A DNA stretch of 64,000 bases, taken from assembly GCA_903908715.1 (NCBI GenBank), contig CAIVSY010000063.1, forward strand, positions 30,113 to 94,112. Direction: 5' to 3'. The notes below the pieces were generated by a model. That model saw only the letters and a list, made by a program, of their open reading frames with translations. It was not told the DNA's origin and did not search any database. The DNA is from an uncultured bacterium (GTDB lineage Bacteria > Verrucomicrobiota > Kiritimatiellia > CAIKKV01 > CAITUY01). Positions 3,828 to 14,426 of the stretch are shown piece by piece; positions within the stretch are counted from its first letter, which is position 1; each line of letters begins with the position of its first letter. Position numbers and translations under genes: made by a program.

Positions 3828-4187
3828 TCAACCCTGCCGGTCCATTTCGCCCGGTTCCTCATCCTTCTGCAACACGCGGATCACAGCCCCCCGCGCAATG
3901 TCCACCTTGACATTGTCCGCCACCTTGACGGTGAATGTCTGGTCCTTGACATTGGAAACCGTACCGATCATCCCCCCGCAGAAGAGGATCCTGTCCCCTG
4001 TCTTGATCTCGCTGATGAGTTTCTTGCGCTCCTTTTCCTTCTTCATCTGCGGGCGGATCATCATGAAGTAGAAAAGGGCGAAAATAATCACCATGTACCC
4101 GATCATCAGCATCCCGCCGCCCTGCTGCTGCCCCTGCCCCGCCGGAGGTGTTGCCATCCCAAAAACCATCATCATGCCGTTCATCAT
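3828..4187 (-). CDS. yajC: Preprotein translocase subunit YajC
   Basis: FYFMMIRPQ-K-EKE...GDRI...GG.IGTV...ARGAV; lies between tgt and secDF. Confidence 0.95.
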   Translation of the reverse strand: MMNGMMMVFGMATPPAGQGQQQGGGMLMIGYMVIIFALFYFMMIRPQMKKEKERKKLISEIKTGDRILFCGGMIGTVSNVKDQTFTVKVADNVKVDIARGAVIRVLQKDEEPGEMDRQG

Positions 4188-5308
4188 CGCTCCTTTTCCT
4201 TCTGCTGTTCGTAAAATGCTGCTCGAAACTCCTCGAAACTTCCCGTTTCCAGCGCTCTCTGGATCTCCCGCATGAACTCCATGAAACGGTGAATGTTATG
4301 TATTGTCAGCAACCGCACACCCAGTATCTCACCCACATTCATCAAATGCCGCACATAGGACCGGCTGAAACGACTGCAACAATAACACCCGCACCCCTCC
4401 TCCACAGGCCGCAAATCATCCTTGTACTCACCCGCCTTGACCGGATACTTGCCGAACCGCGTCAACGCCGTACCATGCCGGGCATATCGCGTCGGCATGA
4501 CACAATCGAACATGTCAACCCCCAGCGAAATCGCCTCGAGCATCTGCCGCATCACTCCGACCCCCATAAGGTAGCGGGGACGCTCAAACGGTAGTTCCCT
4601 GACGCCGTGACGCGTCGCTTCGAGCATCACCGTTTCCGGCTCGCCGACACTCACACCGCCCACCGCATACCCGTCAAAGCCAATCGCCGTCAGTTCACGG
4701 GCACATCGCATCCGAAGTTCCGCAAACTCGCCGCCCTGAACGATTCCGAACACCAACTGGCCGTTGCCAGAGCGGCTTTCCGCACATAAAGCGGCCCATG
4801 ATAGGGTCCGCTCCACCGCCTGACAAGCGTATTCGGCAGTGCATGGATAGGGCGGACATTCATCAAAAACCATCGCGATATCCGAACCAAGGCGCCGCTG
4901 TATGTCCATCGCCTCCCTCGGTCCCAGAAACAACCGGGATCCATCCACATGGGAGGAAAACTCAACCCCATCCGGCCTGATCTTGCGGAGCTTGGAAAGG
5001 CTGAACACTTGGAATCCGCCGCTGTCAGTCAGAATCGGACGGTCCCATCCCATGAATCGATGCAGGCCGCCATGCCTTTCAATCGTAGCCAGGCCCGGCC
5101 TCACATAAAGGTGGTAGGTATTCCCCAGCACGATCTCCGCCCCAGCCGTTTCCAGTTCCAGAGGGGTCATTGCCTTGACCGTTGCCTGGGTCCCGACCGG
5201 CATGAATACGGGCGTCTCAACCGGACCATGAGCGGTCCATAGACGCCCGCGCCTTGCCCGTGAATTCCGATCCGTATCCAGAATCTCGAATGTACCCACC
5301 CTGCTCAT
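4184..5308 (-). CDS. tgt: tRNA-guanine transglycosylase (queuine tRNA-ribosyltransferase)
   Basis: ETPVFMPVGT, GNTYHL, TDSGGFQVFSL, DECPPYP, GGVSVGE, DMFDCV, Zn site CGCYCC...HN. Confidence 0.97.
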   Translation of the reverse strand: MSRVGTFEILDTDRNSRARRGRLWTAHGPVETPVFMPVGTQATVKAMTPLELETAGAEIVLGNTYHLYVRPGLATIERHGGLHRFMGWDRPILTDSGGFQVFSLSKLRKIRPDGVEFSSHVDGSRLFLGPREAMDIQRRLGSDIAMVFDECPPYPCTAEYACQAVERTLSWAALCAESRSGNGQLVFGIVQGGEFAELRMRCARELTAIGFDGYAVGGVSVGEPETVMLEATRHGVRELPFERPRYLMGVGVMRQMLEAISLGVDMFDCVMPTRYARHGTALTRFGKYPVKAGEYKDDLRPVEEGCGCYCCSRFSRSYVRHLMNVGEILGVRLLTIHNIHRFMEFMREIQRALETGSFEEFRAAFYEQQKEKER

Positions 5309-6384
5309 CCGGCCGCCACCGCCAATAACGCAGCGTCCGCCAGAACCAGTGCAGCCATCGACTCGACCACGGCTACAGCACGAGGCACCACGCAGGGATC
5401 ATGTCGGCCCTTGGCCGCCAATATAAGAGGCTTCCCGTTCCAATCAGTCGTCTCCTGCAACAGGCCAATCGTGGCCGGCGGCTTGAATGCCACCCGGAAC
5501 ACAATCGGCTCGCCATTGCTCAGACCACCCTGGATGCCGCCACTCCGGTTGGTGGCCGTTCCTAACCGGTCCCCCTTACGGACAAACCGGTCATTATGGT
5601 CCGAACCGCTCATTCGGGTGGACCGGAACCCCAGCCCTATCTCGAAACCCCTGGTCGCAGGAATGGACATCATTGCCGCCGCCAATCTTGCACTCAACTT
5701 GTCAAACACCGGCTCTCCCCAGCCCGCAGGCACATGACGGCACACACACGCAACCACCCCGCCCAGCGAATTACCACCCGCCTTGGCTTCACGGATCCGA
5801 TCCGCCATCTTTTGCGCGACCTCGGCATCGGGACAACGTACCGGCGTCCGATCCACCGCGGCCCGCGTCAACTTGTCAACATCGGGCTCGGACACGCACA
5901 GATCCTGAACGGATTCCACCCACGCAACAATTTCCACCCCGTATCGGACCCTGAGCAGTTTCTCGGCAATAGCGCCTGCAGCAACCCTGCCTACCGTTTC
6001 TCTTGCACTTGCACGTCCCCCGCCACTGGACGCCAAAACACCGTATTTCATCTTGTAGCTGTAATCGGCATGGGAGGGCCGCGGCGCTGCAACCATCTCG
6101 CCATAGTCTTCCGGTTTTGTGTCCCGGTTTGCCACAAGAACCGTCAAGGGCGATCCCAGCGTCACTCCCTTCTCTACGCCGCTAACAAGCTGCACACGGT
6201 CCGCTTCCCCGCGCGGTGTGGTTAAATCACTCTGCCCCGGACGCCGTCGATCCAGCTGCGGCTGAATATCGGACTCACACAACTCCAACCGCGCGGGACA
6301 TCCGTCAATCACGGCTCCGACAACGGGCCCATGGGACTCCCCAAATGTTGTCACCCGGAAAACCTGTCCAAATGTATTACCCAT
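5305..6384 (-). CDS. aroC: Chorismate synthase
   Basis: MGNTFG...TFGESHG, RPSHAD, GGGRASARET, GGIQGG.SNG, GRHDPCVVPRA. Start set at ATG 6384 after a GGAGAG SD (the ORF track extends to 6477). Confidence 0.96.
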   Translation of the reverse strand: MGNTFGQVFRVTTFGESHGPVVGAVIDGCPARLELCESDIQPQLDRRRPGQSDLTTPRGEADRVQLVSGVEKGVTLGSPLTVLVANRDTKPEDYGEMVAAPRPSHADYSYKMKYGVLASSGGGRASARETVGRVAAGAIAEKLLRVRYGVEIVAWVESVQDLCVSEPDVDKLTRAAVDRTPVRCPDAEVAQKMADRIREAKAGGNSLGGVVACVCRHVPAGWGEPVFDKLSARLAAAMMSIPATRGFEIGLGFRSTRMSGSDHNDRFVRKGDRLGTATNRSGGIQGGLSNGEPIVFRVAFKPPATIGLLQETTDWNGKPLILAAKGRHDPCVVPRAVAVVESMAALVLADAALLAVAAG

Positions 6385-6407
6385 ACGTTCACTCTCCCAT
6401 AAGTCCA

Positions 6408-6437
6408 ACCTTACGAAATCCTTGCACATACTGGCAA
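6408..6437 (-). promoter_or_regulatory. Candidate sigma70 promoter for aroC-tgt-yajC-secDF-recJ
   Basis: Minus strand TTGCCA-N18-TAAGGT, about 25 nt upstream of the aroC ATG. Confidence 0.35.
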
Positions 6438-6503
6438 CGGTTTCTTGCTGGGATGACTCCTGCATTCCCGACATCAATCCATGAACACAGCCCTACTCCA
6501 CCA

Positions 6504-6532
6504 TTGACACCCGTGCCAACGGCAGGGATAAT
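6504..6532 (+). promoter_or_regulatory. sigma70 promoter for the + strand membrane cassette
   Basis: TTGACA-N17-GATAAT: perfect -35, 5/6 -10, optimal spacer, about 55 nt upstream of the GTG at 6586. Confidence 0.7.
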
Positions 6533-6585
6533 TGCGGGAAAGATCATCTTGGCGACCTGAATGATTGATAACCGGGAGCAACATT

Positions 6586-7161
6586 GTGAACGCTAGAAAG
6601 AAATGGATGATATGGGGGGGCGTTGCCGTTGCCTTTTTCGCGTCAATCCTTCTGGCCACAGTTATGCATGTCAGAAAACAGCCGGCTCCTGCCGCATTTG
6701 ATCTTTCTCAATATACCCAATTGACCACTTCCACCAGCGTGAATAACTCTCCCGCTGCACAAACCGATCGCAAGGGACCGGCACCAGCAGGCCATCTCCC
6801 TGAAGCGCATCCACCTGCGGCAGAAATGGATGCAGACTCCACCAATGCACCGAGCCATCAAGATCAGGGTGAATTGCATGCAGTCTTCCCTGACCGATTG
6901 TCACAGGATGAATTCCCTTACCAAGTCATTCCTTTTGAAGCCCGTATAGTGGAGTTCCCGATTGTTCTGCTCGACCAGCATCGACTGGATCTGGCCCCTG
7001 AAATCCGGATGGATCCGACCATGGGCCTTCAGGACACTGATCCGTTATCAGCCTTGAGGGCGAATGTGTACCGGATTGAAAAGCCTTCCCCACCTCCAGG
7101 CCCCCGCCCCGAGCCTCCGAAACCCCCACGCCCCCCTGAGGAAAGTCCCTCGGGCCTCTGA
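6586..7161 (+). CDS. Hypothetical protein with an N-terminal membrane anchor, Ser/Thr/Ala/Pro-rich linker and Pro-rich C-terminus
   Basis: RKK plus hydrophobic helix, then TQLTTSTSVNNSPAAQT, ending PSPPPGPRPEPPKPPRPPEESP. GGGAG SD before GTG 6586 (ORF track start 6565). Confidence 0.6.
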   Translation: MNARKKWMIWGGVAVAFFASILLATVMHVRKQPAPAAFDLSQYTQLTTSTSVNNSPAAQTDRKGPAPAGHLPEAHPPAAEMDADSTNAPSHQDQGELHAVFPDRLSQDEFPYQVIPFEARIVEFPIVLLDQHRLDLAPEIRMDPTMGLQDTDPLSALRANVYRIEKPSPPPGPRPEPPKPPRPPEESPSGL

Positions 7162-7179
7162 TTCCCGGGAGGACGCCCT

Positions 7180-8892
7180 ATGCCTTTGCTTTCGAATCTG
7201 GCACTAGCGCTGGGCCTCATCGTCAACCCATGGCTTCTGGCCCGGAACCTATGCCGGAATGCCGACACGGTCCTGACACTGGCCATAGCGGGCGTGTGCC
7301 TTGTATCAACGGGAGTAGCCGCACCAGTCCTTCTCCATCTGGTCCATATCCCGATATCAGCCGGCCCCCTCACGGTTTTTCATGTTGTGGTGTTCACCAT
7401 CGTCCTCATCCTCTCCCTCCTGCGTGACATCCGCCTGCGCCCCACAACCGAAAACGGATCCATCAGCTCAGCCTTTTCGCCCATGGGATTCATGGCGGCG
7501 GGATTCGCCCTCTTGGTCATCCCGTTCACCCCAATTGCCGGAATCGACACCTATAAGTGGCAGGATCTAGCTGGCGCAGTGAAGGTCGAACGGTCCGTTC
7601 CCTGGCTCATCCATCCTGTGTCCCTGCTTGGATTCACCCCTCGCTCCTACCCGAGCGCACAACCCCTTCTGCTTGCCTCGATATCCATCCTGAGCGGTGC
7701 AAGTGTGGATTGGAGTTCTTACCTCCTCTCCCTCGTTTCCGGAGCCATCGGACTGACTTCTGCCACCGCCCTGGCGCGCCATGTATTCACAAAACCATCC
7801 ACTTCCCTGTGGATGGCCTTCCTGTATGTATTTTCGCCCGTTTTTCTCCGTTATAACTTCTGGGCGACAGGACGCGGACTCTTCATGGCCCTGCTGCCGC
7901 TCTTTGCACTGGGTCTTCTTCACAAGATGCGCGGCAAGACCTTGCTGGCGGCGGCATGGTGTGCCATCCTGCTTTGCCTGTCTCACAAGGCGGGAATGGT
8001 TGCCGTCGCCGCCATTCCGATCGCCTTCCTGGCAGGAGTCCTTTTTTTCCCTCCGGCCCCATCCGCCACCCATCCTCCAAAAGGCTTGGCCCTTATCTGG
8101 CGTATGGGCCTGCCTTGCCTGTTCGCCCTGGCATCTCTGGGTGCGGGATTCATGCTGGCGCAATATTCCCCTTTGAACATGGCGGTCCGGCTGGCAACAC
8201 GACTAGCCTTCCTGTTCCCCTTTTCCCTGATCGGACTTCCGTTTGTTTTTCTCCCGGTTCACGGGACACCTGCCGGACGAGCCATGACCATGATGGCCTT
8301 GTTTGCCCTGCCCGCCGTATGCACGGACTTCATGTATGGATCCCTGATTGCCGTCCTTTTCGTTGCCTATCCTGCGGCAATCGGGCTGGACGAACTGATA
8401 ACCCGAATCCCACCCCACAGCCATCGCTGTGCATATGCCGCAATCGTAGCTGCCGTGATGATTCCTGCCGTCACAATTATCGTTCACCAGTCAGCGGATT
8501 CACCCTCTCGCGATGTCGTCCGCGCCGCCAGATTCCTAAACCAGCTTGACCCCTTGGGACCCTACAGGATCGAGGCCCCGGGCCGCACCCGGACGCGTAT
8601 GCAAGCCTACCTCGACGGATGTCCGCGCTTCAATGTTTTCCAGTCCCGCCAGCCGGCATTGAAACCGATGCCCTTCCCGCTGTTGACGGGTCCCGTGCAT
8701 AAGGATGTGAGGGATATCACCAACTACCTGCGGCAATGGATTGTCCTGCCGGACACCTCCACAGATTGGTACGGATCCAATCCAAAAGTGTACTTTATTA
8801 CCGTCGCCGGCGAAGGCAAAGTCCCCCCTGGCGCACGACTCCTGTTTACGTCCGGAAATGTTTCGGTATACGATGGCCCTTCGGAACCATGA
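7180..8892 (+). CDS. Polytopic membrane protein, probable GT-C fold glycosyltransferase
   Basis: About 12 hydrophobic segments; external-loop GIDTYKW, SYPS and FSPVFLRYNFW patterns; soluble C-terminal tail. Family assignment is inferred. Confidence 0.6.
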   Translation: MPLLSNLALALGLIVNPWLLARNLCRNADTVLTLAIAGVCLVSTGVAAPVLLHLVHIPISAGPLTVFHVVVFTIVLILSLLRDIRLRPTTENGSISSAFSPMGFMAAGFALLVIPFTPIAGIDTYKWQDLAGAVKVERSVPWLIHPVSLLGFTPRSYPSAQPLLLASISILSGASVDWSSYLLSLVSGAIGLTSATALARHVFTKPSTSLWMAFLYVFSPVFLRYNFWATGRGLFMALLPLFALGLLHKMRGKTLLAAAWCAILLCLSHKAGMVAVAAIPIAFLAGVLFFPPAPSATHPPKGLALIWRMGLPCLFALASLGAGFMLAQYSPLNMAVRLATRLAFLFPFSLIGLPFVFLPVHGTPAGRAMTMMALFALPAVCTDFMYGSLIAVLFVAYPAAIGLDELITRIPPHSHRCAYAAIVAAVMIPAVTIIVHQSADSPSRDVVRAARFLNQLDPLGPYRIEAPGRTRTRMQAYLDGCPRFNVFQSRQPALKPMPFPLLTGPVHKDVRDITNYLRQWIVLPDTSTDWYGSNPKVYFITVAGEGKVPPGARLLFTSGNVSVYDGPSEP

Positions 8893-10682
8893 ATCCTGCC
8901 CTGATATTTTGCACCCTGCAACTGACCATCCTTCTTCTTGCCTTGCTAGGTGGAGGCATCTTCCCAAGTACGGTTTGCATGGTCGCCATCTTCACCTCCC
9001 TCGCTTTCACACTCACTTGGGGCCTGCCGCGCCTGCGGCAGGCCCAACCCTCCCCGCCCCCTTCGTCTGTTTCACCCACAACGGCAACCCTCGAAGTCCT
9101 GATGGCGCTGATTCTGCTGTTAATCCTCTTCAGCGCAATCCCTCTCCCTCCGCTTCTGGATCCCCTGATCGGCCGTCTGCGGGCCAGTCAGAACCATACA
9201 GCGACCACACTGTTGCAGGAAGCCGCTCGTGTCGGTTTTTTTGAGGATGGAACCCCTTGGTTCTGCCTCAGCCGGAACCGTGCAGGCACCCTCCGCATGT
9301 TCCTGCTTCTAGGCGCTGCTTTCGGATCAGCCCTTTGCGCCGCAAGCCTCCCGGCACGGTGGCAGAGAGCCTACCTGGTCTTCCTCGCGTGCACAGGCGG
9401 CCTCATCGCCATCGGCGGCTACATCGGGCAATGGGTAATTCCCCAGGAAAATACGCTTTGGTGGACTCTTCCAATCCCGCCGACTTTGCCGGGCCCTGTA
9501 GGATGCTTTATCAACCGCAACCATTTCGCGGGCTTCCTCGCCATCCTCTGCCCGGTCGCCCTGGCGCTTTCCGAAGACGCCTTTCGTCGCCGCCAGTGGA
9601 AGACCGCTCTTGGCATGGCTGCCCTCCTGGGCTGCATGACTTTTTCCCTTGTAATGGTCCTGTCGCGTGGAGCCATCCTCGCCTTCCTGATCGGCACCGG
9701 CGCAACCGCGGCATGGATCATCTTTCGGAGAAGCCGGGCGGCCGGTATCGTTTGCCTGATCCTGGCATTGGGAATCCTGATCATTCTCTATCGTACCACT
9801 CCCGCGCTCCGGGACCGTTTGGACGAATTTCGCCAGCCGAACACCAGCGGTAGCGTCCAAACCCGGCTGCAGGAATGGCGTGAAACCCTTCGAACAGCCT
9901 GTTACTACCCGGTGATCGGAAGTGGCGCTAATGCCCTGCGCATGACATACCCCATTCACCGCCACACTTCCGGAAAATGGCTGGTCAATGCGGAAAACGA
10001 ATACGCACAACTGCTTGCTGAAGGCGGCCTGATCGGTGCGGGACTCGCCATCGCCCTGCTGGCGGCGGCGACCCGTAGAATGCATTTCAGGGCCTGCGCT
10101 CCGGAGTCACAAGTTTTCCCGGTTGCCGTCATCGGCGCTTTCCTGACGGCAGCCGTCCACAACGCCGTCGATTTCCCGGCGCGTCAACCGCTCTATGCCA
10201 TCGTCCTGGCATCACTTGCCGGCCTTCTTTTCGTTCCACCGTCCATGCATGAAACCATATGCCGGTTCCGCCTGCGCCTGATACCAGCGGCTGTCACCCT
10301 GCTGGGCTGCATGATCTTGTCAATAGGCCCGATGTCTTCGTTGCAGCGCCTGGACTCCTACAGCCTTCTGGCCAACCTTTCACCTGCGGAATTGCGGCGC
10401 GCACTGAACTGGGCGCCCACCAGCTGGCATGCGTGGTATATGTCGGGCCGGACCGCGTGTGATGCCGGCCTTGCGACGCAACGCGTGGACCTGTGCGTCT
10501 TTGGGGAAAACCTCATGACGCAAGCTGCCGCGTACGACCCGAACAACTACAGGCTGTGGTATGACCTGGGGCTTGTCCGGCGAGCCCTACGGCAGCATGG
10601 CAGGGCGGATCAGGCATTTGCCAGGGCGAAAGAACTCCGTCCCTGGGTTTCACCCCCCCCCGCAGAACGGAGGCAGCAGTAA
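8889..10682 (+). CDS. O-antigen ligase / O-oligosaccharyltransferase (Wzy_C) family protein with C-terminal TPR-like region
   Basis: FINRNHFAGFL, SRGAILA, RLQEW...PVIGSG, AENEYAQLLAEGGLIG, HNAVDFP; TPR-like AAAYDPNNYRLWYDLG. ATG 8889 overlaps the upstream stop (ATGA). Confidence 0.8.
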   Translation: MNPALIFCTLQLTILLLALLGGGIFPSTVCMVAIFTSLAFTLTWGLPRLRQAQPSPPPSSVSPTTATLEVLMALILLLILFSAIPLPPLLDPLIGRLRASQNHTATTLLQEAARVGFFEDGTPWFCLSRNRAGTLRMFLLLGAAFGSALCAASLPARWQRAYLVFLACTGGLIAIGGYIGQWVIPQENTLWWTLPIPPTLPGPVGCFINRNHFAGFLAILCPVALALSEDAFRRRQWKTALGMAALLGCMTFSLVMVLSRGAILAFLIGTGATAAWIIFRRSRAAGIVCLILALGILIILYRTTPALRDRLDEFRQPNTSGSVQTRLQEWRETLRTACYYPVIGSGANALRMTYPIHRHTSGKWLVNAENEYAQLLAEGGLIGAGLAIALLAAATRRMHFRACAPESQVFPVAVIGAFLTAAVHNAVDFPARQPLYAIVLASLAGLLFVPPSMHETICRFRLRLIPAAVTLLGCMILSIGPMSSLQRLDSYSLLANLSPAELRRALNWAPTSWHAWYMSGRTACDAGLATQRVDLCVFGENLMTQAAAYDPNNYRLWYDLGLVRRALRQHGRADQAFARAKELRPWVSPPPAERRQQ

Positions 10683-10683
10683 C

Positions 10684-11025
10684 ATGAACCAGATCCTCAT
10701 CGGTTCTCTCATACCTTTCGCCGTGGCCATGGCAGTTTATGCCCGCCGCAAGGGTCGGGCAGACATCGCCTTCCTGACCCTGACCCCGTTCGCCATGCTG
10801 CTGGGAGCCCTCTGGGCCGTCGTCCCTGATCTGCCCCGCTTGTTTGGTCGATCGGATCTCTACCTCCGATGGTCCATCGACCCGCGAATGAACCTCTTCT
10901 TCTGGCATTACTCCATCGACCAGATCGAAACCGACTCATCCTGGTATGCGGTCGGACTCCTGCTGACGGGGGCCTGCTTGCTTTTCATCGGCTGGCGTGA
11001 AATCGCAAGAAGGGAGTCCGGCTGA
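10684..11025 (+). CDS. Small membrane protein, YdjM/metal-dependent-hydrolase-like (PD motif); paralog A
   Basis: 3 TM segments; AVVPDLPRLFG...MNLFFWHYSID. ATG 1 nt after the upstream stop (ORF track start 10561 overlaps the previous gene). Confidence 0.6.
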   Translation: MNQILIGSLIPFAVAMAVYARRKGRADIAFLTLTPFAMLLGALWAVVPDLPRLFGRSDLYLRWSIDPRMNLFFWHYSIDQIETDSSWYAVGLLLTGACLLFIGWREIARRESG

Positions 11026-11384
11026 TGGCCTCCGCCCCATTGCATTTCGCCATTGGCACCGCAACCGGCATGGTTCTCCTGGCACCCCGAATCCTCGCCG
11101 CCTGGAATGCACGCGAAAAGCTGGCGACGGCAACCCGGACATGGCTGTTGATCTCCTGGGGATGCGGAATCGTAGCGGCAATCCCCAGCCTCCTGCGGTA
11201 CGCTGGATTCCCTGAAAGCATTTACGCCAATCCATGGATGAACATCTTTTTCCTGCATCCATGGATCAACCGGATCCTGCCCAGAAACGAATTGCCTGGA
11301 AGCTTGGCCATGGCAATCTGCTGGACCACGCAATATGCATGGGTCCTTGCAGCCGTGCTTCGCAGCGGTCGGATCAGGAAGTAA
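11025..11384 (+). CDS. Small membrane protein, YdjM-like (N-terminal His); paralog B
   Basis: LHFAIG...AAIPSLLRYAG...MNIFFLHPWIN. TGATG coupling to paralog A. Confidence 0.6.
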   Translation: MASAPLHFAIGTATGMVLLAPRILAAWNAREKLATATRTWLLISWGCGIVAAIPSLLRYAGFPESIYANPWMNIFFLHPWINRILPRNELPGSLAMAICWTTQYAWVLAAVLRSGRIRK

Positions 11385-12219
11385 TCTGCTCCCGAAGCCT
11401 GCGGCCTTTCTCGAGTTGCTCACGCACAGCCTCGAAATCGCCCGCCTCTATATCTGCGATCAATCCCGCCAGTTCCCCCTGGAATCCACGAAGCGCAGAC
11501 AGAATCTCCGCACGATTGCTCCTCACGATGTCATGCCACATATCAGGGCTCCCCGCCGCAATACGGGTGGTGTCGCGATATCCCGGACCGCACAACGCAA
11601 GAAACTTATCCCGGTCCATCCCACCGGTCGCCGTTACCAACAAACTCGCGACCAGATGCGGGAGGTGACTGGTCCTGGCCACAATCGCATCGTGATCCTC
11701 CGGCGCCAACCGCACCACCCGGCACCCAACATCGCGCCACATCCGGCTCACGACATCGACCCCCGATCCGGCACCTTCTCCCGCAGTCACCACGGTAACC
11801 GAACCTTCATAGAGGTCCGCACGCGCCACCGCGATACCCGTCTTCTCGGATCCCGTCATGGGATGACTTCCCACAAACTCCACCGGTCGGCCTGCGAGAA
11901 CAGGCGCGATCCGATTCGTCAGTTCGGTCTTCGTGCTCCCTACGTCGGTAATAACAGTCCCCGATTCCAGGGCCGGCAAAAACGAATGCACCAGTTCGGG
12001 GATCGCCAGAACGGGGGTGCACACAACGACAATCTGTGCCCCTTCCACGGCCGTCTGCGGGGTGCCCGCAACCTCATCCACAACACCCATCGCAAGGGCT
12101 GCATCCATCGTCGCCTTGCGACGTGCATAGCCTTTAACCCGGGCTAGGCCGCGCCGCCGCAACGCCAGGCCCAGCGAACCTCCCATCAGACCCAAACCGA
12201 TGACCGCAACCGTCTTCAT
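11374..12219 (-). CDS. tyrA: Prephenate/arogenate dehydrogenase
   Basis: VAVIGLGLMGGSLG, TDVGSTK, FVGSHPMTGSE, HDAIVARTSHLPH, DTTRIA...MWHDI. ATG 12219 overlaps the hisC stop. Confidence 0.93.
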   Translation of the reverse strand: MKTVAVIGLGLMGGSLGLALRRRGLARVKGYARRKATMDAALAMGVVDEVAGTPQTAVEGAQIVVVCTPVLAIPELVHSFLPALESGTVITDVGSTKTELTNRIAPVLAGRPVEFVGSHPMTGSEKTGIAVARADLYEGSVTVVTAGEGAGSGVDVVSRMWRDVGCRVVRLAPEDHDAIVARTSHLPHLVASLLVTATGGMDRDKFLALCGPGYRDTTRIAAGSPDMWHDIVRSNRAEILSALRGFQGELAGLIADIEAGDFEAVREQLEKGRRLREQITS

Positions 12220-13346
12220 GCCGTTGCCTGTCCTCCTGCACGCGCCGCCAACACCGTCTCCAAGGCCCGGAGACAACGGCGGTTTTGCACCCGCGTTCCC
12301 ACCGTAATCCGGATGTGATCCGGAAGACGGTACGGATCCATGGGGCGGACAATGACCCCGAGCTTCTGCATCGCCTCGAAGACCTCCCGTCCCTTCCCGA
12401 CCTTGACAAGGATGAAGTTAACCACGGATGGCACAAACTCCAGACCCATCTTCCGGAATGCCTTCTCGAAGTCCACCAGACCATCCTTTACAAGCCTCCG
12501 GGTGCGCTCGACATGCTCCTCGTCCTCCAGTGCGGCAAGGGCAGCCGCCTGCCCCATGGCCGTGGTATTGAAAGGCTGCCGCACCCTCTGCATCAGATGG
12601 ATGCATTCCTCCGGCGCAACGGCATACCCGATCCTCAAGCCGGCCAGACCGTATGTCTTCGAGAAGGTTCGCAGGATAATCACGTTGCGCCCCTCCCGCA
12701 CGTATCGCAACGTGTCCGGCTGCAGGGCGGGATCCAACAATTCGATATACGCCTCATCCAGCACGGTGATCACATGATCCGGAACCCTGTGCAGGAAGGA
12801 TTCCAGTTCCGCACCGCCCACCATTGTGCCGGTTGGATTGTTGGGGTTCGCGATGAAGACAACCCGGGTCTCACCCGTGATGGCCGCAAGCATGGCATCG
12901 AGATCATGTGTGAACTCACGCATGGGCACCAGGACCGTCCCCGCCCGAAACATATCGCCAACCAGTTTGTAGACCACAAAGGCCCGGTCCGCCATAACCA
13001 GATTCATCCCCTCGCCCAGGAAAACATGGCCGATAAACTCGATCAACTCATTACTGCCTGTGCCGATCAGTAACTGACCCGGCTTGACATGTAACTTCCG
13101 CGCAAGGGCCTCCCGCAGGTAAAAGGCCCCGCCGTCGGGATACAGGTGCATTCGCCGCGCCACCGCCCGCATGGCCACCACGGCCTTCGGGGATGGCCCC
13201 AGCGAATTCTCGTTGGACGCCAGCTTGATGATGTCATCGGCGGAAGCAAAACCCATCTCCCGCGCGACCTCCTCAATGGGCCGTCCAGGCTCGTAGACTC
13301 CAAGCCCGCTGACCCAGGAACGCGCCAAATCACTGAAACCTGGCAT
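12216..13346 (-). CDS. hisC: Histidinol-phosphate / aromatic amino acid aminotransferase
   Basis: KLASNEN.LGPSP, YPDG, NPNNPTG, DEAY, RTFSKTYGLAGLRIGY. AAGGAG SD before ATG 13346. Confidence 0.93.
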   Translation of the reverse strand: MPGFSDLARSWVSGLGVYEPGRPIEEVAREMGFASADDIIKLASNENSLGPSPKAVVAMRAVARRMHLYPDGGAFYLREALARKLHVKPGQLLIGTGSNELIEFIGHVFLGEGMNLVMADRAFVVYKLVGDMFRAGTVLVPMREFTHDLDAMLAAITGETRVVFIANPNNPTGTMVGGAELESFLHRVPDHVITVLDEAYIELLDPALQPDTLRYVREGRNVIILRTFSKTYGLAGLRIGYAVAPEECIHLMQRVRQPFNTTAMGQAAALAALEDEEHVERTRRLVKDGLVDFEKAFRKMGLEFVPSVVNFILVKVGKGREVFEAMQKLGVIVRPMDPYRLPDHIRITVGTRVQNRRCLRALETVLAARAGGQATA

Positions 13347-13364
13347 ACCTTTCTCCTTTAACAC

Positions 13365-14426
13365 TTACCGGGATCTCGGGTAGGAACCCAGCACATTCAT
13401 ATACACACAATGGCCGGATATATCCGCCAGCGCTTTCGTCACCGGCTCATCCGTCGGATGACCTTCCAGGTCCACAAAGAAGAAGTACTCCCAAGCCTTG
13501 CTCCGACTCGGGCGCGATTCGATCTTTGTCATATTGAGCCCGAACTTCTTGAACGACTCCAGCGCACCGTACAAGGCACCGGCCTTATGCTGGACGGCAA
13601 AACACAAGGACGTCTTATCGTTTCCCGTCTTTTGGCCGTACCCGTGTCCAAGCACGACAAACCGTGTCGTGTTCCCGCTCATATCCTGCACATCGGACTC
13701 GAGGATCCGCAGCCCGTAGATTTCCGCCGCGAGCCGGCTGGCAAGCGCGCCGCTGTTGGGCTCCTTGGCCGCCAGTTCAGCCGCCCGCGCCGTACTGGCC
13801 ACGGGGATCATGTCCACTCCCGACATCTCGCGCTGAAGCCACTGCCGGCACTGCCCCAGAACCTGGGGATGGCTGTAAAGCTTCTCAATCCTCTCCCTCG
13901 CCACCATGGAAAGCAGGCACTGCGAGATCGGCAGGTAAATCTCAGCGCAAATCTTGAGCGGAGTTTCCGCCAATCGGTCCAGCGTGAAGGTTACCGCACC
14001 CTCCGTGGAGTTTTCGACCGGCACAACCCCGTAGTCGGCCATTCCTTTCTCGACAGCGTCAAACACGTCACTGATGGTCTCACAGGAATAGTATTCCACA
14101 CTGGCACCAAAGCGGCCGCGGGCGGCCTGGTGGGAAAATGTCGAAGGCGGCCCAAGGTATGCAACCTTCAGGTTCTTTTCTAGCGCCAACGCCGCCGACA
14201 TGATCTCCCGGTAGATTGCCCGAAGCGATTCAGGCTTGAGCGGCCCCTGACTGAGCGATGTGACCCGTGCCAGCACCTCCTTCTCCCTCGCAGGCACGTA
14301 CACACCCTGACCGTCCTTCTGCTTGAGCTTGCCGATCTCGAGCGCACAACCGGTTCGCTCATTTAGAAGCCGTATAAGTTCCTCGTCAATCTGATCGATC
14401 TTCTTCCTCAGGTCTCCGACGTTCAT
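13365..14426 (-). CDS. pheA: Chorismate mutase / prephenate dehydratase (P-protein)
   Basis: LRKKIDQID, VAYLGPPSTFS, PVENSTEG, NTTRF, TKIESRP, ACT domain. Confidence 0.96.
   Translation of the reverse strand: MNVGDLRKKIDQIDEELIRLLNERTGCALEIGKLKQKDGQGVYVPAREKEVLARVTSLSQGPLKPESLRAIYREIMSAALALEKNLKVAYLGPPSTFSHQAARGRFGASVEYYSCETISDVFDAVEKGMADYGVVPVENSTEGAVTFTLDRLAETPLKICAEIYLPISQCLLSMVARERIEKLYSHPQVLGQCRQWLQREMSGVDMIPVASTARAAELAAKEPNSGALASRLAAEIYGLRILESDVQDMSGNTTRFVVLGHGYGQKTGNDKTSLCFAVQHKAGALYGALESFKKFGLNMTKIESRPSRSKAWEYFFFVDLEGHPTDEPVTKALADISGHCVYMNVLGSYPRSR

Follow-up and report, generated by a model that had tools for sequence, protein, structure and literature searches.

The Wzy_C-type O-oligosaccharyltransferase TfpO modifies the C-terminal Ser of the pilin. 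In Pseudomonas aeruginosa, tfpO or tfpW, the latter encoding a GT-C glycosyltransferase with a periplasmic tetratricopeptide repeat (TPR) domain, lies immediately downstream of the acceptor gene pilA (bioRxiv 10.1101/2020.04.19.049825). These pilA-tfpW and pilA-tfpO (pilO) pairs are the closest precedent for the locus described here, in which the gene of a putative dedicated membrane glycosyltransferase also directly follows that of the candidate acceptor, which we call the cargo. The locus consists of five genes, g1 to g5, within 64,000 nucleotides of DNA from an uncultured Kiritimatiellia bacterium (contig CAIVSY010000063.1, positions 30,113 to 94,112); this whole stretch is referred to as the window. 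It is the local form of a conserved Kiritimatiellia operon with the order cargo-g2-g3-g4-g5. Read from its sequence, the operon may encode a dedicated system on the periplasmic side of the inner membrane that glycosylates a tagged protein, most likely the product of its own first gene, and we give this reading about an even chance of being correct. In window coordinates, the genes and the tag are as follows.

6565..7161, + strand: g1, cargo protein; bitopic with its N-terminus inside, transmembrane (TM) helix at residues 15-33, motif FPYQVIPFEARIVEFPIVLL, Pro-rich spacer and C-terminal tag.
7138..7158, + strand: tag EESPSGL, the C-terminus of g1; an instance of S-x-[SGTA]-G-[LIVM]-COOH.
7180..8892, + strand: g2, polytopic membrane protein of 570 amino acids (aa) with a C-terminal soluble domain; GT-C fold by model.
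8889..10682, + strand: g3, 597-aa Wzy_C-family membrane protein with an extra TM helix and TPR, by Pfam.
10684..11025, + strand: g4, 113-aa 3-TM protein, from three hydrophobic segments.
11025..11384, + strand: g5, 119-aa 3-TM paralog of g4, by hhalign.

The foremost novelty of the system is a terminal tag common to unrelated cargos. S-x-[SGTA]-G-[LIVM] terminates 27 of the 35 distinct proteins encoded directly upstream of g2 homologs, with variants in other genomes that include VESNAGL, EVSTSGL, ISESGI, DDSQSGL, PPSVGGL and ITSPSGV. The upstream proteins range from 104 to 1906 aa, and the spacing between their genes and the g2 homolog from -1 to 134 nt. In the window's family the cargo is a small bitopic protein (here ~200 aa) that has a conserved motif of 20 residues and whose spacer consists of PPG repeats. 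Outside that family it is a signal-peptide protein, with large, secreted forms of 600-1900 aa. DUF7948 and FGE-sulfatase domains were found in all eight large cargos scanned with Pfam, and SBBP or InlB B-repeat domains are sometimes added; after these domains follows a spacer of poly-Asp/Glu, poly-Thr or poly-Pro. Our literature search returned no papers on DUF7948. Where g2 is missing or broken, the cargo lies directly upstream of g3 and ends in the strict tag at one locus (L072) and in near variants at two (L069, L077). Since a tagged or near-tagged cargo thus stands beside g3 at such loci, the tag is a property of the whole system, cargo-[g2]-g3-g4-g5.

In the window, g1 had been described by a first-pass annotation as an anchored S/T/P-rich protein, in agreement with its single N-terminal TM helix and Pro-rich tail. 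It gives no Pfam or NCBIfam match, permissive thresholds included, and its orthologs are found upstream of g2 at related loci. The g1 open reading frame (ORF) begins at TTG 6565, with other possible starts at GTG 6586 and ATG 6607. GTG 6586 is the likely start, because GGGAG precedes it and it would give a short basic N-terminus resembling those of the orthologs. Across the window's own genome the tag motif ends 5 of 8952 ORFs, and motif and low-complexity spacer occur together in two of those five: g1 and an ORF upstream of a second copy of g2. This second copy (contig C93 of G000, 2149 bp; L026, 151-2122) is 45-47% identical to the window's g2 and scores 2.0e-225 with the g2 profile, against 8.1e-214 for the window copy. 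The ORF in front of it ends in PESPSGL. Rather than a true paralog, the copy may be a piece of a different Kiritimatiellia genome that was binned wrongly.

As the first-pass annotation had described, the five genes are on the + strand with distances of 18, -4, +1 and -1 nt (g1-g2, g2-g3, g3-g4 and g4-g5), and g5 overlaps the 3' end of tyrA, on the - strand, by 11 nt; the ORF list and direct reading of the sequence place every one of these features as described. The start and stop codons of g2 and g3 overlap in an ATGA. Synteny was compared in 40 relatives, and gene content was counted in an even set of 301 Kiritimatiellia genomes. The operon is composed of two modules, cargo-g2 (g1-g2) and g3-g4-g5, which are joined in some genera and occupy separate loci in others. 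g1-g2 is divergent from aroC-tgt across the whole family, while g3-g4-g5 is an inseparable triad in 5 of the 7 families of the order. Among the 301 genomes, g2 is present in 44 and g4 in 59, and both in 42, a co-occurrence well beyond chance (Fisher p = 5e-35, without correction for phylogeny); the modules are adjacent and in the same order in 19 of these 42. The expected co-occurrence of the five families is borne out, the full order being kept in at least ten GTDB families of the class. Since g2 occurs without g4 in 2 of 44 genomes, against 17 of 59 for g4 without g2, the dependence is one-way: g2 depends on the g3-g4-g5 triad and the triad does not depend on g2.

For g2, the earlier assignment as GT-C-like holds at the level of fold and not by sequence. 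The AlphaFold2 model, built on an alignment of 54 homologs, has a pLDDT of 94.4 and a pTM of 0.93. A Foldseek search of the PDB with this model yielded nine credible matches, all of them GT-C: AftD, ArnT, DPY19, AftA, ALG9 and ALG12 (probability 0.90-1.00, TM-score 0.30-0.43, E 4e-3 to 0.2; ALG12 at overall rank 12). Below them stand transporters at a probability of ~0.1. At the sequence level, g2 matches nothing in Pfam (E up to 10) or NCBIfam (E up to 1), its 54-homolog profile retrieves no GT-C chain among PDB sequences, and the hhalign probability for a PMT_2 protein is 0.3%. A sequence bridge to the known GT-C families (PMT, PMT_2, ArnT/GT83, GT87, STT3 and others) was considered and set aside for want of profile, PDB or hhalign support. 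The search of 5.8 billion clusters found 197 relatives of g2, all named 'hypothetical' and none with a Pfam domain. The model suggests that g2 represents a new GT-C family invisible to sequence searches.

Asp123 of g2 (nt 7546-7548), within the motif AGIDTYKWQD, is invariant. It sits in a 64-aa loop after TM4, not TM1, followed by short juxtamembrane helices, and a crude positive-inside count predicts this loop to be periplasmic. Arg155, Arg224, Arg232 and His269 are also invariant, and residues 440-570 form a C-terminal alpha/beta domain in the model. In one other genome (that of L077; G309/G238), g2 is broken into two frames covering profile positions 4-342 and 345-550 (contig C44, 15426-17064), at a site apart from the cargo-g3-g4-g5 operon of the same genome. 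This split gene is probably a decaying copy, which fits a dispensable g2.

The WaaL ligase provides the frame for g3. In its structure 7TPG, Arg191 and Arg265 bind the diphosphate of the lipid carrier. A conserved periplasmic-loop His of WaaL (His313 of 7TPG) has been suggested as the residue by which the acceptor is activated, and Asp or Glu in place of the ligase His is the pattern of Wzy-type polymerases (PMC10920833). The reported Wzy_C/TPR architecture of g3 is confirmed by Pfam, both thresholds being passed: Wzy_C (PF04932) at residues 246-386 with 74.7 bits against a cut-off of 31.7, and TPR_17 at residues 543-575 with 27.8 bits against 24.4. In addition, phmmer matches the region to designed TPR proteins. 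The TPR region (about residues 500-585) and the extra last TM helix form the C-terminal part of g3, and the TPR region is predicted to be periplasmic from a crude count of hydrophobic segments. The best NCBIfam match is TIGR03097 (PEP_O_lig_1; 5.2e-16), under its cut-off.

Where canonical Wzy_C members have His-Asn, g3 carries Glu369-Asn370 (nt 9993-9998), a position that was set by alignment to the Wzy_C paralogs of its own genome and not to 7TPG. Glu is found there in 39 of 40 g3 orthologs (Glu-Asn, AENEY) and Ser-Asn in the remaining one, whereas the paralogs have His-Asn in seven of eight cases and His-Ala in one. Arg260, Arg310, Arg326 and Arg358 are invariant among the orthologs. Since Glu stands where ligases have His, g3 is not a canonical WaaL-type ligase and looks polymerase-like at this position. 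The eight paralogs (contigs C11, C30, C67, C32, C6, C53, C74 and C78) are unusually many for a 3-Mb genome, and their presence rules out g3 as the sole ligase of the organism. A literature search found no papers joining Kiritimatiellia and O-antigen ligase.

g4 and g5 had been called paralogous small membrane proteins, and hhalign relates them with a probability of 96.3% (E 1.6e-9). Crude topology prediction places the N-terminus of both and the conserved 36-38-residue TM2-TM3 loop (38 aa in g4) in the periplasm. The residues Trp44, Ala45, Pro48, Asp49, Tyr60, His75, Asp79 and Glu111 of g4 are invariant. g4 retains PD and H..D; g5 retains the N-terminal His (LHFAIG), whereas its PD is changed to PS and its H..D to H..N, and is probably a non-catalytic partner of g4, as far as these motifs indicate. 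Six natural proteins from one family of the same order join g4 and g5 in a single chain, which argues that the two act as a heterodimer. We folded such a natural fusion with an alignment that was deep just for its g5 part, because MAFFT sets g5 rows against the g4 half once g4 rows are present. Confidence is good for the g5 half and low for the g4 half and its conserved loop, and Foldseek returned nothing above a probability of 0.12 for this model with its low-confidence g4 half.

Neither g4 nor g5 matches Pfam or NCBIfam, permissive thresholds included, and of 1.84 billion representative clusters 108 match the g4 profile. Two identities were rejected. None of 67 g4, g5 and fusion sequences matches YdjM/DUF457 (PF04307) at E up to 10, and an ArnE/F- or GtrA-type flippase (SMR/EamA) is excluded by three TM helices instead of four and by the lack of a family match. 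Unsplit relatives of g4/g5 in other phyla combine the N-terminal His, PD and F-F-x-H-x-x-[LI]-D. These motifs resemble those of YdjM, which is a lead only.

The pair also occurs in other company. In a Victivallales-labelled metagenome-assembled genome (MAG; L079, 4444-7282), g4-g5 follows a 703-aa PMT_2 (GT-C) protein with a 4-nt overlap, replacing Wzy_C, so that the pair can partner either type of lipid-linked-sugar glycosyltransferase. In other phyla, some g4 relatives form fusions with CpsB/CapC, a capsule phosphatase domain. In an Omnitrophota MAG (L096, 9118-11158; P0177, P0193), a g4-like 3-TM domain with the full set of motifs (N-terminal His, PD and FFFHxxLD) shares a polypeptide with a PHP-type phosphatase domain of the CpsB/CapC kind, follows a degenerate g5-like small protein and adjoins GT2 and epimerase genes. 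The pairing of an intact and a degenerate member therefore exists outside Kiritimatiellia too. Relatives of g4, sometimes with g5, are found in Kofleriaceae and Myxococcales MAGs (L090-L094). At the two Myxococcota loci checked, g4 is directly behind a large PEGA-domain protein and no Wzy_C neighbour was detected, in DNA whose high G+C makes ORF calls unreliable.

How might these parts work together? The conserved polar residues are all predicted to be periplasmic from crude hydropathy and positive-inside counts, and none of the five proteins has a nucleotide-sugar-using domain. The cassette encodes no enzyme for the synthesis or flipping of a lipid-linked donor, so the donors come from elsewhere; they would be lipid-linked sugars produced and flipped by genes outside it. 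The earlier description of the cassette as self-contained therefore does not stand, and about half of the genomes, moreover, keep its two modules at different loci. The most economical reading of the sequences takes the tagged protein as the acceptor. g3, tethered to the cargo through its periplasmic TPR region and cooperating with a g4/g5 heterodimer, would transfer or polymerise an undecaprenyl-diphosphate-linked glycan onto the Ser-containing C-terminal tail or the spacer of the cargo. The Asp/His/Asp set of g4 at the membrane surface, together with the degenerate g5, would form a probable metal- or substrate-binding accessory site for g3. g2 may attach sugars from a polyprenyl-monophosphate donor to the cargo or to its glycan. 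It would be an optional decorating enzyme, as cargo-g3-g4-g5 exists without g2 in some genomes while g2 is nearly never found without g3-g5. The product would be a membrane-tethered or surface-displayed glycoprotein. A bolder version, which we consider unlikely, is a new type of protein anchoring by a 'glyco-sortase' of bacteria of the Planctomycetes-Verrucomicrobia-Chlamydiae (PVC) group: a C-terminal tag of five residues (S-x-x-G-[LIV]), preceded by the mucin-like spacer, would mark one dedicated cargo for covalent coupling to a lipid-linked or polymeric glycan. The coupling would be done by enzymes of glycosyltransferase fold, one from a new GT-C family and the other the Glu-variant Wzy_C/TPR enzyme, which would have a novel two-subunit 3-TM cofactor. 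If true, lectin-like proteins would be displayed on the cell surface in this way.

Several points weigh against glycosylation of the tagged protein. From its sequence, the Glu of g3 points to glycan polymerisation, not to transfer onto protein. By the model, g2 has a modest and distant relationship to the GT-C superfamily, at the level of fold and with no link in sequence. The strict tag is absent from 8 of the 35 proteins upstream of g2, several of which have near variants, and the tail could equally be a docking peptide, not the modified site. The Fisher p of 5e-35 for the co-occurrence of g2 and g4 is not corrected for phylogeny. Convergence of waaA with g5 at 10 loci hints at a connection to lipopolysaccharide (LPS), and no named cultured species is a holder among the 55 named loci.

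The alternative that survives best, possible although we doubt it, is that the target is a lipid or a polysaccharide. g3 with g4/g5 would then act in the manner of Wzy, as polymerase or ligase, on an O-antigen, a capsule or an exopolysaccharide; g2 would be an ArnT- or GtrC-like decorator of lipid A/core or of the polymer, and the first gene product a non-substrate accessory (scaffold, chain-length regulator or lectin-like binder) docking by its tail. The Glu at the His position fits the polymerase families, ArnT is among the best structural matches of g2, and the fusion of g4-related domains to CpsB/CapC in other phyla points the same way. The FGE-sulfatase-fold domains of the large cargos could bind carbohydrate, and flippase-like LPG_synthase_TM genes stand ahead of g3 at several loci. 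The waaA gene beside g5 also favours a lipid target, but it is convergent and not co-oriented with g5, and in the window's own genome it is on another contig. In addition, a strictly conserved Ser-containing tag at the extreme C-terminus, preceded by a Pro/Thr/acidic spacer of mucin-like type and shared by proteins with no other relationship, resembles an acceptor or sorting signal. The cassette is without Wzx, polysaccharide co-polymerase (PCP) and outer-membrane polysaccharide export (OPX) genes, and the eight other Wzy_C paralogs, mostly with the canonical His-Asn, could serve LPS and exopolysaccharide.

A second alternative, quite unlikely in our judgement, denies that g2 is a glycosyltransferase. 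Though GT-C-like in fold, g2 would be an enzyme or receptor for processing, sorting or anchoring of the tagged protein, for instance through tail cleavage or non-covalent tethering, while g3-g5 act independently on a glycan. The modest GT-C similarity with no sequence link leaves room for this, and the way in which g2 and a tagged neighbour pair off one to one recalls a sorting enzyme and its cargo. However, all nine credible structural matches are GT-C before the probability drops to ~0.1, and an invariant Asp in a loop predicted to be periplasmic, juxtamembrane helices and invariant Arg and His would be typical of GT-C enzymes. Moreover, tagged cargo is also found with g3-g5 alone, and 42 of the 44 g2 holders have g4. 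That g1-g2 and g3-g4-g5 are functionally unrelated neighbours, adjacent by chance, is strongly disfavoured and very improbable. Roughly half of the genomes with both modules do keep them at different loci, but g4 is present in 42 of 44 g2 holders against 59 of all 301 genomes, ten families or more have the modules fused in one and the same order, g2 and g3 overlap in an ATGA here, and where there is no g2 the cargo stands immediately ahead of g3.

The surroundings of the operon bear on its history. In window coordinates, the flanking features are as follows.

6504..6532, + strand: promoter-like site TTGACA-17 nt-GATAAT, sigma-70-type, matching the consensus at 11/12 positions, in the aroC/g1 divergent intergenic region.
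5305..6477, - strand: aroC, chorismate synthase (Pfam Chorismate_synt, 3.8e-133), the kept divergent neighbour of g1-g2.
4184-5308: tgt, by Pfam.
11374..12276, - strand: tyrA, prephenate dehydrogenase (Pfam PDH_N and PDH_C), convergent with g5.
12216-13364: class I/II aminotransferase (hisC), by Pfam.
13365-14426: pheA (Pfam CM_2, PDT and ACT).

Pfam agrees with the first-pass annotation on the flanks, tyrA and aroC on the - strand, and the near-perfect sigma-70 promoter that it reported corresponds to the promoter-like consensus match at 6504-6532. Over the whole region there are 2 promoter-like sites versus 1.8 in shuffled sequences, so that the total is not raised and the case for this site rests on its quality and position. 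The aroC ORF is listed from TTG 6477, while its orthologs and the Pfam match open at MGNTFG, residue 33 of that ORF. The gene probably begins near 6381; the divergent intergenic region would then be wider, at about 200 bp.

The same annotation had proposed an uncharacterised glycosylation system inserted into a former pheA-hisC-tyrA-aroC run. Its first part, as a periplasm-facing system for glycosylation or glycan assembly, is supported. The insertion is not: relatives keep the tyrA block and aroC apart. d326-d248-d237-pheA-hisC-tyrA is a separate conserved block, found on other contigs or, in G007, 63 kb from aroC, and in none of the relatives examined does tyrA adjoin aroC. The positions of tyrA and aroC in the 40 relatives thus rule out insertion into an aromatic amino acid operon. 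The convergent g5-tyrA junction is confined to the window's own genus (G001). Because it is genus-specific, the junction is best read from gene order as a rearrangement that joined two blocks there, and not as an insertion. A horizontal island is ruled out by the even G+C content, with no break across the cassette, and by the vertical conservation of the genes beside aroC. In other families, a waaA (Kdo transferase)-xerC-topA-dprA block is convergent directly downstream of g5 at 10-14 loci (e.g. L047, 10679-16783); in the window's own genome this block is on a separate contig (C20, 5006-10975). The window is part of a 171-kb contig in a 3.05-Mb MAG, and the locus is present in three sequencing runs, all of lake-water metagenome DNA. 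The MAGs of related loci are labelled Kiritimatiellae/Kiritimatiellia, Verrucomicrobiota, Victivallales or 'PVC group'.

Kiritimatiellia break down sulfated and complex polysaccharides and are widespread in lakes, in sediments and in guts. To our knowledge, their envelope is next to unstudied. Systems of this kind are known already, in which GT-C and Wzy_C enzymes transfer glycans from lipid-linked donors and the gene of the acceptor lies beside theirs. New here, besides the tag, are the presence of GT-C and Wzy_C types in one operon, the g4/g5 pair and a Glu-variant Wzy_C with TPR. The operon defines four protein families for which databases have no model: the cargo, the GT-C-fold enzyme and the two 3-TM proteins. 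Should the tag prove to be a signal for glycosylation or anchoring, it would amount to a new rule by which bacterial glycoprotein targets are chosen, and the compact set of tag and enzymes might be useful in glycoengineering. If the system acts instead on a lipid or polysaccharide, g4/g5 would still be a new accessory pair for Wzy-type enzymes.

Comparison with characterised systems places the locus between several paradigms. Like the Pseudomonas pilin systems, it contains GT-C and Wzy_C enzyme types and a TPR domain, here predicted to be periplasmic. Unlike them, its cargo is not a pilin, and both enzyme types are in one operon together with two small subunits. The TPR is on the Wzy_C protein g3 and not, as in TfpW, on the GT-C protein; g2 has no sequence similarity to known GT-C enzymes and g3 has Glu for His. 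With the Wzy polymerases and WaaL (CAZy GT121-GT135, clan GT-C1; 7TPG), g3 shares a Wzy_C domain above threshold. Its long loop, predicted to be periplasmic, carries invariant Arg residues and, as in the Wzy polymerase families, is acidic at the position that would activate the acceptor (PMC10920833). g3 differs in Glu or Ser for the His of the ligase WaaL (CAZy GT121), the extra TM helix, the C-terminal TPR and the constant coupling to g4/g5, and the partners Wzx, Wzz and Wza are absent from its operon.

ArnT with ArnE/ArnF, which modify lipid A with aminoarabinose, and the three-component Gtr systems (GtrA/B/C) likewise encode a GT-C enzyme together with two small paralogous membrane proteins, and the ArnT structure 5f15 is among the top matches of g2. 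However, g4 and g5 have three TM helices, not four, and their conserved residues are in a predicted periplasmic loop, not in the membrane. They travel with the Wzy_C gene and not with the GT-C gene, and donor-synthesis genes are absent. The mycobacterial arabinofuranosyltransferases AftD and AftA are among the fold matches, AftD providing the two best matches of g2 and AftA the sixth (6wby, 6w98, 8if8). These similarities have TM-scores of 0.30-0.37 and 13-18% identity, g2 is much smaller, and the context of an arabinan pathway is missing. Finally, the sortase/LPXTG, exosortase/PEP-CTERM and rhombosortase/GlyGly-CTERM systems also have a short C-terminal signal after a low-complexity spacer, on unrelated proteins, with a linked membrane enzyme. 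A further tie to the exosortases is that the best NCBIfam match of g3, TIGR03097, is an exosortase-associated putative O-glycosylation ligase, although the match is below cut-off. In contrast to these sorting systems, the tag is the last five residues of the protein, so that neither a TM helix nor a basic tail follows, and each system has one cargo and no regulon; its linked enzymes have a glycosyltransferase fold and not a peptidase fold.

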